64,000 nt of DNA from Candidatus Hydrogenedentota bacterium (lineage in GTDB: Bacteria > Hydrogenedentota > Hydrogenedentia > Hydrogenedentales > SLHB01). A program made the position numbers and the translations under genes. Below are positions 23,829 to 28,536 of the stretch, piece by piece. The stretch is taken from contig BTVY01000002.1 in NCBI GenBank assembly GCA_045863335.1, forward strand, positions 160,562 through 224,561. The letters are read 5' to 3'. Position 1 is the first letter of the stretch. Each line of letters begins with the position of its first letter. The notes beneath the pieces are model-generated. The model did no database searches. It was given only the letters and a program-made list of their open reading frames with translations, and had not been told where the DNA came from.

Positions 23829-24362
23829 TTACCGCGACTCGTGCGCCTTGACGAAGGCCTCGATCTCCCCGCCGGACTGAAGCGCGATGTTGGCAGGCAC
23901 CTTGAGTTCTGCGAGGTCGATGCCACGGCCCAGGTAGACGTCGACGGTCGCGAGGCAGCGGTGTCCTTCGAACAGATCGGAGTCGGTACGTCCCTCGTAG
24001 TGTTCCGCGATGTGCAACGTCCAATCGGCATTGACGGCGCGCTGGGTGCCGTCGTGGCGATTCATGTCGATGGGCCGTGGTCCCGGGTGGAGCACCACGG
24101 TTAACCGAGTATCAGTAAGTTCGGCATACCGGGCCAGAAATCCGTTTAGAGCATCCGTGTCCCCCGCGTAATGGGCCCAGGTATCGGCAAAACCAACTGT
24201 GCCCGCGAACCGGGCTCCATGGTTGATCAGATCCGCCGTTCTCGAGGGCCAACCGCCGCCCACAGGCATCGGGCCAGCGCCATAGAACTCTTGGAGCGCG
24301 ACTCCGGGAAGGGCGCACAAGGTCAACGCTCCCATTAGGATTACCGGTTTCCGTATTTGCAT
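23829..24362 (-). CDS. Secreted hypothetical protein
   Basis: RBS GGAGGAG, signal peptide MQIRKPVILMGALTLCALPGVA. Confidence 0.65.
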   Translation of the reverse strand: MQIRKPVILMGALTLCALPGVALQEFYGAGPMPVGGGWPSRTADLINHGARFAGTVGFADTWAHYAGDTDALNGFLARYAELTDTRLTVVLHPGPRPIDMNRHDGTQRAVNADWTLHIAEHYEGRTDSDLFEGHRCLATVDVYLGRGIDLAELKVPANIALQSGGEIEAFVKAHESR

Positions 24363-24701
24363 TTTCTCTCCTCCAATGGACTTCTGGCTGAACGGATCGT
24401 GTCCTGACAATGGTAATACGCTCTGCGGTTGTCGAAGTTCATCCCTCGGTTCGGAACTCCGGAGGTTGTCGCTCCCGAATGCAGCAGGCTGGAAGTCTGT
24501 GCCAAATCGGGTAGCAGACCATCCATGATTGCCTTCACAGCCGAACATATGGGGGGGCTGAAACCGTGGTGCTTTGCGCTTATCCGCGGAACCGTTGCGA
24601 TGACCGGTCCCCGTGGTTCAATATGAATCGGGTGCCGGTTCGTTTTGCGGACAGGCGACGCAAGGGCTTTTGAAGGTGGACACGTTAATCTGGAGGTAAT
24701 C

Positions 24702-25022
24702 ATGCCTACGAGCAAATCGCCCATGGCGAAGTATTGGTTTGGCAAGAAGGCGCCGGAGCATGCGGACGCGTGGTTCACGTTCTACAAGTCGGTAAAATCC
24801 GAGGGAACGCTGGACACAAAGACAAAGGAGCTGATATCCGTCGCGGCGGGGCTACTGTTGCGGTGCGAGCATTGCGTCGAGGCGCACACGAAGGACGCTA
24901 TTCGCGCCGGGGCGACCAAGGAAGAGGTCGCGGAAGCGTGCATGGTCGCGTCGCAAATCGCGTCGGCATCGCAGCTGTTCTTCATGTCGGAGAAGATGGA
25001 CGAGTTGCTGGCGGACGAGTAA
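24702..25022 (+). CDS. Carboxymuconolactone decarboxylase/AhpD-like protein
   Basis: LDTKTKELISVA...CEHCVEAH...GATKEEVAEA; RBS GGAGG. Confidence 0.9.
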   Translation: MPTSKSPMAKYWFGKKAPEHADAWFTFYKSVKSEGTLDTKTKELISVAAGLLLRCEHCVEAHTKDAIRAGATKEEVAEACMVASQIASASQLFFMSEKMDELLADE

Positions 25023-25061
25023 GCATCTAAAGCTGCGTTTCTACTGGCCGCACGAAACAGA

Positions 25062-25100
25062 CCAAGGGTCGCGAGGCTATCTGAGCCACGCGACCCTTGG
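25062..25100. terminator. Hairpin between convergent genes
   Basis: CCAAGGGTCGCG...CGCGACCCTTGG inverted repeat. Confidence 0.7.
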
Positions 25101-25129
25101 ATTCTCACGAATTATTCGCAGCTACCGAG

Positions 25130-25444
25130 TTACCAGGAGCGGCCGCCGCGGCCACCGCCGCCGCCGCCATATCCGCCACCGCTACGGCCGCCGCCGCCTT
25201 CCGTCTTCGGGCGGGCTTCGTTCACCTTGATCGAGCGGCCTCCGAGATCCTTGCCGTCCAGGCCGGCGATGGCCGCCTGGGCCTCGGCCTTATCCGGCAT
25301 CTCGACGAAACCAAACCCCTTGGACTGATTCGTGTACTTGTCGACGATGGTCCGCGCGGTGTCGACCTTGCCATAGGCTTCAAAGGCCGCCTTCAGCTCG
25401 TCTTCGGTGGTTTGATACGACAGATTGCCTACATAGATGTTCAT
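25130..25444 (-). CDS. RRM RNA-binding protein with Gly-rich tail (Rbp family), copy 1
   Basis: RNP2 IYVGNL, RNP1 KGFGFVEM, VNEARP, Gly/Arg tail. Confidence 0.95.
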   Translation of the reverse strand: MNIYVGNLSYQTTEDELKAAFEAYGKVDTARTIVDKYTNQSKGFGFVEMPDKAEAQAAIAGLDGKDLGGRSIKVNEARPKTEGGGGRSGGGYGGGGGGRGGRSW

Positions 25445-25645
25445 TCACGTCTTCCTTTTTTGCAGTTGCACTGCACCTACGGGGAAAGCGTTCGAGACCT
25501 CGGGGCGAGCGAATGGGACCAAGTGAAAGGCGAGAAGCGATACAGAAGCGTCTAGCGGAGTCATTGGTAGCAGCGTCATCCAGATGCCAGGAACAGCGGG
25601 TTCGCGCCACGCCACATGCGCGGCAACCCATCTTCCCTTTGTCGA
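25445..25645 (-). ncRNA. Putative structured 5' leader RNA, copy 1
   Basis: Homologous to 26105-26303 with compensatory stem changes. Confidence 0.55.
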
Positions 25646-25651
25646 AGTCCT

Positions 25652-25680
25652 TTTATAGCATAGGTTGAGGCAGATAGCAA
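25652..25680 (-). promoter_or_regulatory. sigma70 promoter TTGCTA-17-TATAAA (extended TGn -10)
   Basis: Hexamers identical in both rbp copies while the spacer has diverged. Confidence 0.8.
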
Positions 25681-25739
25681 GGTCTATTTTGTAGCGGGAT
25701 ACCGCGCGGGGGGCCGCACCCAGAACCGGGGAATGAGAA

Positions 25740-25776
25740 TGGGGCCGTACGACGCGTTTGCATCGTACGGCCCCAA
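25740..25776 (-). terminator. Hairpin downstream of rbp copy 2
   Basis: TGGGGCCGTACGA...TCGTACGGCCCCA. Confidence 0.7.
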
Positions 25777-25807
25777 TGGATCTTCTAGTCAGCGAAGACT
25801 GCGCGGT

Positions 25808-26104
25808 TTACCAGGAGCGACCGCCGCCGCCGTAACCGCCACCGCTACGGCCGCCGCCTTCGGTCTTTGGACGCGCCTCGTTCACCTTCAGGCTGCGACC
25901 GCCCAAGTCCTTGCCGTCCAAGCCGCTAATGGCCGCCTGGGCCTCGGCCTTGTCCGGCATTTCCACGAAACCAAAGCCCTTGGACTGGTTCGTGTACTTG
26001 TCGACGATGGTGCGCGCCGTGTCGACTTTTCCGTAGGCCTCAAACGCTTGTTTGAGGTCGTTTTCGGTGGTTTCGTACGCCAGATTGCCTACATAGATAT
26101 TCAT
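25808..26104 (-). CDS. RRM RNA-binding protein with Gly-rich tail (Rbp family), copy 2
   Basis: RNP2 and RNP1 motifs; near-identical to copy 1. Confidence 0.95.
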   Translation of the reverse strand: MNIYVGNLAYETTENDLKQAFEAYGKVDTARTIVDKYTNQSKGFGFVEMPDKAEAQAAISGLDGKDLGGRSLKVNEARPKTEGGGRSGGGYGGGGRSW

Positions 26105-26303
26105 TCACTGGTTCCTTTTGCAGCACCGCTGCGATTGTAAGGAGATAGTTCGCGACGTCGGGGGAAACGAAAGGACCAAGTGAGGAGCTGGAAGCGGTAC
26201 ATCAAGCATCTAGCGGATTCATTGGCAGCATCGTCATCCAAAAGCCAGGAACACTGGGCGCCAGTCACGCCACATGCGTGACAACCCATCTTCCCCTTCA
26301 GGG
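26105..26303 (-). ncRNA. Putative structured 5' leader RNA, copy 2
   Basis: Homologous to 25445-25645 with compensatory stem changes. Confidence 0.55.
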
Positions 26304-26309
26304 ATCTGA

Positions 26310-26338
26310 TTTATAGCACATGCTCATCACGATAGCAA
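26310..26338 (-). promoter_or_regulatory. sigma70 promoter TTGCTA-17-TATAAA (extended TGn -10)
   Basis: -35 at 26333-26338, -10 at 26310-26315. Confidence 0.8.
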
Positions 26339-26457
26339 GGTAAATTTTTTAGTGGGATATCTCGCGGAAGGCGCTTTCGGTCTTCCTCGTGCCGCGCCCG
26401 CCGAGCGCGGCACTAGGCGCGCAATGAAGCCTTCCTCCCCGGGGGGCGTTGACGACG

Positions 26458-27297
26458 TTAGATTTGACGTTCGCTATGCTTGTTCTTCCGGTACTTTTTG
26501 TCTTCCTCTTTGTGGCGGCGAAACGACCACTTGTCGAAACCCTTTTCATCACGCAGAATCTCGTCGGGGATGTCGGAGGCAGGATCGGGCTGCCTAGCAA
26601 GTTGATTTCCGAGGTACATGGAGATCTCCTGGAAAGCCCCTGCGGGATCCTTCACTTTCTGAAAGTCATCGGCTTTCAAGAACGGATTCAGAGTAAGGCG
26701 AATGCGATCAGACCGGTTCCCCTTGTTGAGGGCGATGTACTCAAGTTTGAACGCCGGAATACCTAGGTCGATGAATAACGGATCGAATCTTCGATTCAAT
26801 ACTTCACTGGATGCGGTTAGCCAAGTACCGTGGGTCAGCGGGTCGGACTGCCAGTACATACCGCGTCTTGCATCCACTTTTCGTTCCAGTGCGGCCTTCA
26901 GGACTTTTTCGTTCGTGCCGCATCGTTTCAAATAGCTGCTCGTAAGTCCTGTTGCTATATCCTCCGTAGAATGAAATGTCTTCCCGGCAATTTCAATGGC
27001 GGGATAGATGAATCCGCAGAAGCCGATGAGCTTCACTGAGAGTGGTATTTGCAGATTCTCGGTTCGCCAACGACCAATGCGAGTTGAGACCGCATGAGGA
27101 AACCGCTTGATCGATTCGACCAATGGAGCAAGCGTCTTGTCCAGACCACGAGGCAAGTGCGACCTGCGTTCGCCCAACATTGAAAAGCGGGTCTCATATT
27201 CGAAGACTTCGGTCTTGCGCACATACGTCAGGGCCGGATCCATGCCGTAACCCTGTGCAGAGTCATAGTAATCTTTGAACTCGGAAATGATTCTCAT
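26458..27297 (-). CDS. Hypothetical protein
   Basis: 279-aa ORF MRIISEFKDYYD...AFQEISMYLGN...KGFDKWSFR; looks lower in GC than its neighbours. Confidence 0.8.
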   Translation of the reverse strand: MRIISEFKDYYDSAQGYGMDPALTYVRKTEVFEYETRFSMLGERRSHLPRGLDKTLAPLVESIKRFPHAVSTRIGRWRTENLQIPLSVKLIGFCGFIYPAIEIAGKTFHSTEDIATGLTSSYLKRCGTNEKVLKAALERKVDARRGMYWQSDPLTHGTWLTASSEVLNRRFDPLFIDLGIPAFKLEYIALNKGNRSDRIRLTLNPFLKADDFQKVKDPAGAFQEISMYLGNQLARQPDPASDIPDEILRDEKGFDKWSFRRHKEEDKKYRKNKHSERQI

Positions 27298-27369
27298 TTG
27301 CTCGTACCGTCGATGGATTCCCTACAGGCGCAGAATATGCGCACTTCAGATAAAGGTCCATCGCCCGAG

Positions 27370-28536
27370 TTACTCGTAGAACTGCTCCACATCGTAGATC
27401 CGCAGCGTAATCTCCGAATCCCGTTTCCATTCGGTGTTGCGGGAGTAGTAGGCGATGAGGGCTTCGTTGCCGAGGAAGGTGCAGGAGGGGTAGGCGGCGT
27501 CGTAGTTTTTGCGGTTGTCGATGTCGTGGTAGTGGGTCCAGGTCCGGCATTCGTCTCTAGAAATCGCGGCAGTCAACGGCGTGCGGGGCCAGTTGGATTT
27601 TGACGCGACATTATTCCAGAGGACGAGGATATCACCGGTGGACGGGATGCGCTTGAGCAGGGCCGGCGATTCGGGGGATGCGAGGGTCGTGGGCGCGGGA
27701 GTCGTCCAATGTTCGCCGCCGTCCTCGGAGATGCTGTAGTACTGGCATTGATTCGTGTTGCGGAGCAGGCAGTAGAGCCGCCCATCGTTCAACTCGACGA
27801 TGGTGGGTTCGTGGCAACCTCTCCCCTTCGCCGTCATGCTGTCGCGGCTGCGCTTCCACGACTTGAACCCATCGTCTGAGTAAAACACGAAGGAATGAAG
27901 ATTTCCGCCTTCGTACGGAGCCCCGCCGATGTACTTCTCCGCGTAAGGACCGTGGGCCGGGAGAATGACGCGGCCCGTGCTGTGCCGGAGGGCGCGGTCT
28001 GCGTTGTTGCAGTACCAGCCGGGTTCGGAGATCTGAAACTGTTCGCCCCAGGTCTCGCCGTTATCGAGGGAGCGGCGCATGTAGACGTTGCGGTTCTCGT
28101 TGGAGCCCCACCCAACATAGGAGAACAGAATCTCCTGGTCCGATAGCCGAACGAGGTTGGGATGTTTGACGTTGTGTTTCCACTCATTCGCCTGCATCAC
28201 GCGATGGCCGCCCCAGGTGCGCCCGCGATCGGTGGATACCATGGACGCAATCTGGCAGGCGACTTCATCTGTCGCGCCGGAGCTGCCGATGGTCGCGTTG
28301 GAATCGGCGTTCTCGTCGTAGTACTCGCACCAGACCAGCAGGAGCCGCTCGTCGTCGAGGGGGAAGATGAGCTGATGGTCGTGCCGCGGATGCGGAGGCG
28401 CCCAGGGGCATGCGATCGCGTCGTGGACCGGTTCGAGTCGCGGACTTCGATCGCTGGCGTTCGCGGCAGAAACGAGCGGCGCCAAACCAGCGACGGCCGC
28501 TGTATCGCGCAGAAAGCGGCGGCGAGATAGATTCAC
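27370..28536 (-). CDS. Tat-exported sialidase-family (BNR/Asp-box) protein
   Basis: SRRRFL; Asp-boxes STDRGRTW, SLDNGETW, SDDGFKSW, SEDGGEHW, SRDECRTW; AAYP. Confidence 0.9.
   Translation of the reverse strand: MNLSRRRFLRDTAAVAGLAPLVSAANASDRSPRLEPVHDAIACPWAPPHPRHDHQLIFPLDDERLLLVWCEYYDENADSNATIGSSGATDEVACQIASMVSTDRGRTWGGHRVMQANEWKHNVKHPNLVRLSDQEILFSYVGWGSNENRNVYMRRSLDNGETWGEQFQISEPGWYCNNADRALRHSTGRVILPAHGPYAEKYIGGAPYEGGNLHSFVFYSDDGFKSWKRSRDSMTAKGRGCHEPTIVELNDGRLYCLLRNTNQCQYYSISEDGGEHWTTPAPTTLASPESPALLKRIPSTGDILVLWNNVASKSNWPRTPLTAAISRDECRTWTHYHDIDNRKNYDAAYPSCTFLGNEALIAYYSRNTEWKRDSEITLRIYDVEQFYE

Follow-up and report, generated by a model that had tools for sequence, protein, structure and literature searches.

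A structured 5' leader RNA conserved upstream of glycine-rich RRM genes in Candidatus Hydrogenedentota

Background

The window analysed in this work is a stretch of 64,000 nucleotides (nt) of DNA from an uncultured Candidatus Hydrogenedentota bacterium (GenBank assembly GCA_045863335.1, contig BTVY01000002.1, positions 160,562 to 224,561). On its minus strand lie two tandem genes, rbpA and rbpB, each of which encodes a glycine-rich protein with a single RNA recognition motif (RRM) and is preceded by a long leader, here called the type I leader. An initial annotation of this region had suggested, from the letters of the window alone, that the two leaders have diverged yet keep their pairing and that they constitute an undescribed cis-regulatory RNA. 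We found this observation to be real and its core reading to be right, as the same element is present in other genera with compensatory changes, but the fold had to be corrected: the conserved fold consists of the parts P0, P1, P2 and P3.

To our knowledge, the targets and the control of bacterial glycine-rich single-RRM proteins are largely open outside the cyanobacteria. For other genes, structured leaders are familiar. The cspA mRNA carries a long structured 5' leader ahead of the gene of a small nucleic-acid-binding stress protein, and in the leaders of ribosomal proteins and other RNA-binding proteins, such as the L20 leader and the rne 5' untranslated region (UTR), the protein binds a structured site in its own mRNA and thereby represses it.

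Results and discussion

Two tandem RRM genes with long leaders

The products of rbpA and rbpB match the Pfam family RRM_1 (PF00076) with 83.1 and 85.0 bits, respectively (gathering cutoff 20.7). Their coding regions are 83% identical over the first 240 nt, and the leaders, referred to as A (rbpA) and B (rbpB), are identical in 149 of 208 alignment columns, with 4 columns gapped. In total, the source genome contains four RRM genes. The coordinates of all features are given in Table 1.

As initially annotated, both genes possess identical TTGCTA-17-TATAAA hexamers (25680-25652 and 26338-26310), leaders of about 200 nt, measured from the -10 hexamer to the ATG, and separate downstream hairpins. 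The hexamers agree with the sigma-70-type consensus at 9 of 12 positions, and a TTGnnn-17/18-TAnnnn arrangement is kept in position upstream of the homologues. A promoter scan called 0 sites, as its rule for the -10 hexamer asks for a T in the sixth position. The hairpin downstream of rbpA (25062-25100) received no call from the terminator scan tool; the contigs from RNA libraries described below stop beside it, at 25096-25104. In our reading, each rbp gene forms a transcription unit of its own, in which a putative promoter and a leader of about 200 nt precede the RRM gene and a terminator follows it.

The conserved fold of the type I leader

The structured part of the type I leader spans about 140-155 nt (core about 140 nt) and is followed by a purine-rich spacer of 30-37 nt, the Shine-Dalgarno (SD) sequence and the AUG. 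It begins about 10-15 nt from the predicted 5' end of the mRNA. P0 is a short closing stem. Most relatives have GAUG/CAUC here, copy A has GGGAAG/CUUUCC, and in one relative, G035, the strands are swapped (GCCAU/AUGGC). P1 is a stable 5' hairpin in every type I copy, variable in stem and length and with a G/U-rich loop (AUGUG, AUGUU, GUGUU or GUGG). P2 and P3 together make up a long, irregular arm. P2 is a long helix in which GUUCnUGRC-UCUUGG pairs with CCnnAGA-n-GUCnnGAAC. Within P3, P3a is formed by CCAAnGA with UCnUUGG, and P3b is an apical hairpin with the base GCUUGA/UCUUGC and a pyrimidine-rich tip. When extra helices and pseudoknots were sought among the unpaired columns of the type I alignment, only scattered single columns and no stacked pairs emerged.

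Several of these parts had been seen in the initial annotation. The hairpin GCCGCGC-AUGUG-GCGUGGC of leader A (25624-25606) and its counterpart GUCACGC-AUGUG-GCGUGAC in leader B (26282-26264), which differ by C-G to U-A and G-U to A-U changes, are confirmed as the inner part of P1 and are well supported in the wider alignment, and the four blocks named as invariant are identical in both leader copies. The outer GGAA/UUCC stem on which this hairpin was said to sit finds no comparative support. It can be drawn, but its letters are present in 27 of 72 cells of the 18-sequence alignment with no both-side change, and 81% of the cells pair compared to 71% with the partners slid by one column. The UUCC of this stem is instead the start of P2, a helix that every copy has, and the GGAAG is the 5' strand of P0. 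The hairpins described just before the SD are present (25474-25462 and 26132-26120), but they are restricted to the A- and B-type copies of the genus.

Co-variation supports the fold

The structure was derived from 18 sequences and the covariance model R2 was built on that structure; pairing statistics were obtained from 34 matches aligned to R2, 31 of which are distinct. Over these 31 distinct sequences 87.2% of the cells are standard pairs, compared to 32.6-47.8% with the partners slid by 1-3 columns, and both sides change in 16 of the 35 pairs. Such both-side changes occur in 3 of 4 pairs of P0, 7 of 7 of P1, 4 of 14 of P2, 1 of 7 of P3a and 1 of 3 of P3b, and the share of paired cells is 81.9% in P2, 93% in P3a and 94% in P3b. 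Nine sequences that took no part in defining the structure pair in 260 of 287 cells. For a structured 5' leader tied to RRM genes, the initial annotation had asked for co-variation in a wider alignment, and this is what was found. With high confidence, the leader is a functional structured cis-element.

A leader devoid of any function of its own, either a leftover of a recent tandem duplication or the site of a leader peptide, would fit the facts that A and B are tandem paralogues and that many copies have an AUG in P0. We consider this highly improbable, given that the element has been kept across 5-6 genera with compensatory changes and that the upstream open reading frames (ORFs) vary, shift frame or are absent. 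As a candidate, the leader peptide was rejected: the upstream ORFs measure 4 to 90 codons, are frame-shifted and are missing from at least 5 of 22 leaders. In copy B, an upstream ORF that starts from the AUG in P0 stops at a UGA which overlaps with AUGA at the start of rbpB; this ORF is in a different frame in copy A, and relatives do not conserve it.

The type I leader occurs exclusively upstream of RRM genes

By blastn, the source genome was shown to have a third copy of the leader, which precedes a third RRM gene; across the family, the blastn matches were confined to the same genus, plus one chance match. A sequence-only model of the 107-nt core, R1, detected the element in 13 of 54 genomes of the family, representing 4 of 31 genera, and all of its inspected matches lie before RRM genes. 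Four of the five weakest order-level R1 matches were discarded as false, having no RRM gene nearby. With R2, 16 genomes were found to carry the element, out of 133 in the order and 135 in the phylum; they belong to 5 of 66 genera and one family. Run with filters off on the regions upstream of RRM genes, R2 also matched in G004 (E 1e-3 and 8e-6), which brings the genera to six, and picked up one more copy, the third, in G035.

In the source genome there are exactly three R2 matches, each before an RRM gene. Of all 33 R2 matches, 28 sit 30-45 nt upstream of an RRM gene, contig ends truncate the remaining five, and there is no match in any other context. In a control with 80 RRM loci from other lineages, the sole R2 match (L077) proved to be the relative G016 itself, leaving 0 of 79. 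A scan of metagenomes with a pattern that proved too loose returned at least 120 stretches; none of the 80 loci examined matches the model, and no new sequences were gained. The type I leader is exclusive to RRM genes.

This distribution bears on whether the leader could be a small-molecule riboswitch, as its multi-helix fold and conserved internal-loop nucleotides might suggest. The element never accompanies metabolic or transport genes, its junction strands are not strongly conserved across genera, and no terminator or conserved expression platform was found in it, so that a riboswitch is very hard to credit.

Related leaders in the same phylum

Among the upstream regions of the other RRM genes of the family a second leader, type II, was found. 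It comprises a nearly invariant hairpin, GUGCAAUGG(G/U)UGCAC (GUGCAAUGGKUGCAC), then UGGAGUUCGUGAGC closing on CAC-CUCCA, an inner helix, and an apical hairpin on GCGUGA/UCAUGC, which corresponds to the P3b base. RNAalifold gave this layout independently of any imposed structure. The type II model, R3, detected the leader in 23 of 135 genomes, spread over 14 genera and four families, at 27 loci outside the window (including L318:165-307 and L319:169-307). At 25 of these loci an RRM gene follows at a distance of 21-36 nt, and the other 2 are at contig ends. In type II 87.7% of the cells pair, compared to 29-51% when slid, and both sides change in 19 of 36 pairs.

Types I and II have a common layout of 5' hairpin, long closing helix and apical hairpin, and two U-U mismatches in the P3b base of type I are pairs in type II. 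One locus, L326, bridges the types, scoring 19.2 bits with R2 and yet being a seed of R3; apart from it, R2 and R3 do not cross-detect the two classes. For this reason common descent is something we infer, from GAGUUCGUGA and the P3b base that both types contain, from the layout and from the gene context.

The fourth RRM gene of the source genome (G000 contig C11, 135713-136063; locus L297), which is 56% identical to rbpA, is preceded by a different conserved leader, type III. This leader and its relatives (L298, L331-L334 and L336) show a promoter-like CTATTGCAAGA...TGTGCTATAC, a GC-rich hairpin in the genomes of genus g14, and a G/U-rich GUGAGAGA or GUUGUGUGA, while the remainder aligns poorly. 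By eye, a further group, type IIb (L294 and L308-L314, genus g30), reads GGAGUUCGUGGAUAGUAGACC ... AUCCGGAC before a second RRM paralogue, and its GUUCG/CGGAC pairing resembles P2 of type I.

A new RNA family with a precedent in green sulfur bacteria

A permissive cmscan of 24000-27500 against 4227 Rfam 15 models returned three chance-level matches (E 7-8) to unrelated families. Chlorobi-RRM (RF01697, gathering threshold 45 bits), a known leader family of RRM genes, gave no match in this range at E up to 10. As a positive control, the RRM locus L137 of a member of the Chlorobiaceae scored 82.5 bits for RF01697 (599-671), directly upstream of its gene, and RF01697 would therefore have been found if it were present in the window. 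At E up to 1, the type II and type III loci had no Rfam 15 match either, RF01697 included, and a full-text literature search found no description of the type I leader RNA. The type I leader is a new RNA family, of a kind previously described only in green sulfur bacteria. The initial annotation, which recognised no known family, was right on this point; its wording of an undescribed cis-regulatory RNA stands for the family and not for the kind, since Chlorobi-RRM is a precedent.

We take Chlorobi-RRM to be autoregulatory. Like type I, it is structured, lies directly upstream of single-RRM genes and begins with a hairpin, but it measures 73 nt and consists of two hairpins, whereas type I, at about 140 nt, combines a closing stem and a hairpin with a long arm of three parts. 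In Weinberg et al. (2010, PMC2864571) it is listed as cis-regulatory and not as a switch, and the seed sequences there carry CCARYGGUUGG at the tip of the first hairpin; in the RF01697 consensus this tip is CAAUGGUUG. The motif CARYGGTTG has no match in the loci of the window copies (L001-L004), where the type I loops are only similar to it. Directly upstream of 80 RRM genes from other lineages, it was found in none besides the Chlorobiaceae leader. In type II, conversely, CARYGGUUG stands at the tip of P1 in 9 of the 27 loci, the same place as in the leader of the Chlorobiaceae RRM gene. The NCBI taxonomy places both phyla, Hydrogenedentota and Chlorobi, in the FCB group.

Other known systems are more distant. 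The rbpA1 5'-UTR of the cyanobacterium Anabaena variabilis resembles type I in being the long leader of a glycine-rich RRM gene, but belongs to another phylum; reportedly, it was implicated in transcript accumulation at low temperature in the work of Ehira, Ohmori and Sato of 2005. The L20 leader and the rne 5' UTR follow the same logic as is proposed below for type I, but with different proteins and RNA folds, and no Rfam leader family matched. Compared to cspA and RNA thermometers, type I has no Rfam match and shows no clear conserved helix that would sequester the SD, and its gene encodes an RRM and not a cold-shock domain.

The leaders in RNA-library contigs

The type I leaders lie in contigs assembled from RNA libraries of two metatranscriptome studies, X17 and X14. 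X17 contains gene and leader as separate pieces, 25104-25615 (record 8) and 25806-26295 (record 15), and X14 again as separate units, 25096-25539 and 25801-26145. These contigs reach up to 171 and 191 nt upstream of the ATGs of rbpA and rbpB, which argues against a transcription start close to the ATG, the possibility that the initial annotation had named as damaging to its reading. At their farthest 5' point, 26295, the contigs stop 8 nt before they would reach the start that the rbpB -10 hexamer predicts; this is a weak hint of a start, because neither ends nor strand can be read from contigs. In several RNA-library contigs the region of the glycine-rich tail (25140-25180) joins other sequences, as expected for a low-complexity repeat. 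DNA near-identical to 24900-26500 is listed in contigs of runs that are labelled sludge, bioreactor or wastewater metagenome, from about 11 studies (share at least 0.47, the possible source excluded).

The position of the element, close to the predicted 5' end, and the stable P1 hairpin of every copy are also what one would expect of a platform for another trans-acting factor or of a stability element, that is, a 5' structure that guards against 5'-end-dependent decay, or a place where an RNase, a small RNA or some other RNA-binding protein docks. Simple protection by a hairpin would not call for 140 nt in which the internal sequence is conserved, and the exclusive association with RRM genes across three leader classes points to a factor tied to those genes. 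This explanation therefore seems rather improbable to us.

Around the two units, the plus-strand neighbour at 24645-25022, a CMD-family gene, and a minus-strand ORF at 26458-27297 (279 amino acids, no Pfam family), directly upstream of the rbpB promoter, look unrelated to the rbp genes. Two leader-RRM units in tandem are present in another species of the genus as well (G016 contig C34, L048/L077), and a tandem pair is found in genus g14 (G025 contig C24, L062), so that the duplication is either older than the split or has happened more than once.

Table 1. Positions of the RRM genes, their type I leaders and associated signals in the window
Feature	Position	Strand	Details
rbpA	25130-25444	-	ORF; 104-amino-acid glycine-rich single-RRM protein; Pfam RRM_1 E 1.3e-23
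rbpB	25808-26104	-	ORF; 98-amino-acid glycine-rich single-RRM protein; Pfam RRM_1 E 3.2e-24
Type I leader element of rbpA (P0-P1-P2-P3)	25481-25637	-	R2 match 25481-25634, 88.7 bits, E 1.2e-17; P0 5' strand GGGAAG reaches 25637
P1 of leader A	25598-25629	-	base GGG/CCC (25629-25627 with 25600-25598), inner hairpin 25624-25606, loop AUGUG
P2 5' strand of leader A	25580-25594	-	GUUCCUGGCAUCUGG; pairs with 25505-25490
P2 3' strand of leader A	25490-25505	-	CCCCGAGGUCUCGAAC
P3 arm of leader A	25519-25567	-	CCAAUGA (25567-25561) pairs with UCACUUGG (25526-25519); RNAalifold
P3b apical hairpin of leader A	within 25519-25567	-	GCUAGA (25556-25551) with UCUCGC (25535-25530)
P0 3' strand of leader A	25482-25488	-	CUUUCCC; pairs with GGGAAG 25637-25632
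Purine-rich spacer of leader A	25445-25480	-	lineage-specific hairpin 25474-25462; SD AGGAAG 25456-25451
Type I leader element of rbpB	26139-26293	-	R2 match 26139-26291, 102.3 bits, E 1.1e-20
Leader B, P1 inner hairpin and P2	26282-26264 (P1 inner hairpin); 26252-26238 with 26163-26148 (P2)	-	
Leader B, P3 and P0 3' strand	26225-26219 with 26183-26176 (P3); 26147-26141 (P0 3' strand)	-	
Putative promoter of rbpA	25652-25680	-	-35 TTGCTA 25680-25675, -10 TATAAA 25657-25652, spacer 17; predicted start about 25645
Putative promoter of rbpB	26310-26338	-	-35 TTGCTA 26338-26333, -10 TATAAA 26315-26310, spacer 17; predicted start about 26303
Likely terminator after rbpA	25062-25100	-	hairpin CCAAGGGUCGCG...CGCGACCCUUGG, then UCUGUUU
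Terminator-like hairpin after rbpB	25740-25775	-	called by scan tool; 16-bp stem, then UUCUCAUU

A possible feedback loop on the RRM proteins

We propose that the type I leader may act as the sensor of a feedback loop on the encoded RRM proteins. The glycine-rich RRM proteins would bind to the G/U-rich loop that P1 exposes, to the UUGGU region or to both, abundant RRM protein would lower translation initiation or mRNA stability, and temperature may modulate the fold or the binding. By analogy with the systems above, we regard such feedback by the RRM proteins, perhaps with a link to temperature, as the most likely function of the leader, although as a proposition it is no more than evenly balanced. 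That the RRM protein itself is the ligand, as gene context and analogy suggest, appears at best evenly balanced.

Several results weigh against this reading. None of the three copies of the source genome has the exact hairpin tip of Chlorobi-RRM. The folding energies of single sequences are unremarkable (z 0.15 and -0.73). Strong conservation leaves little co-variation in P3a and much of P2 (1 of 7 and 4 of 14 pairs); the support for P3a and part of P2 comes mainly from complementary sequence that is conserved. Although 0 of 500 shuffles reached the observed values on any of five measures, these counts overstate the significance because the alignment is model-fitted, 18 of its 31 rows defined the structure and the sequences are kin. 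The RNA evidence consists of assembled contigs, which are silent on starts, strand and level, and one contig of a third RNA library (X2 record 22) spans both units and could stem from DNA or read-through. Finally, the mean pairing probability of the SD is 0.70 compared to 0.61 with a shuffled element, with 14 of 22 leaders above the control, and the partner of the SD differs between leaders. Sequestration of the SD by one conserved partner is not supported, the pairing being barely above the shuffled control and the partners varying.

Alternative pairings are nevertheless predicted in the source genus. RNAalifold predicts an anti-SD pairing of GUUCCU with the SD AGGAAC within this genus only, and upon free folding of copy A the 3' strand of P0, CUUUCC (25482-25488), is the predicted partner of the SD (25451-25456). 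Along with the GGAA/UUCC pairing, these could constitute a lineage-specific switch, without comparative support.

These pairings are also the ground on which a protein-independent temperature sensor has to be weighed, in which the leader would refold in the style of cspA mRNA or an RNA thermometer and so alter how an rbp mRNA induced by cold is translated or degraded. Cyanobacterial rbp genes have been reported to have long 5' leaders and to be induced by cold, and the three alternatives in the source genus (GUUCCU with the SD, GGAA/UUCC, and the P0 3' strand of copy A with the SD) would serve such a sensor. The alternatives are, however, confined to that genus, most relatives reading GUUCG and having no GGAA; the pairing of the SD, barely above the shuffled control, has no constant partner; there is no match to cspA or any Rfam thermometer family; and the runs that contain this DNA are labelled sludge or bioreactor. 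Because the alternative pairings are lineage-specific, we rank a pure thermosensor second, behind feedback by the RRM proteins, and think it unlikely.

Feedback control by the encoded RRM proteins could have a wider setting. Types I and II, possibly type III, and Chlorobi-RRM might be branches of a single old family, shared within the FCB group, of elements for feedback by RRM proteins, with a recognition hairpin (A/G)UGG/UUG and a second UGGU site. We put this forward tentatively, as a doubtful though conceivable extension.

Conclusions

An RNA of about 140 nt that is supported by co-variation and tied only to RRM genes provides a concrete candidate ligand for the proteins of these genes. It occurs in up to three type I copies per genome, has two sister classes within the phylum, and is well supported as a candidate for one or more new Rfam families. 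The phylum itself is known only from metagenomes. The hairpin tip in common with Chlorobi-RRM suggests a recognition rule that is possibly valid across the FCB group. If all these leaders do belong to one family in that group, this would be the first specific RNA ligand from nature for the glycine-rich RRM proteins of bacteria, and a riboregulator that couples the level of the protein, and perhaps temperature, to its own translation.

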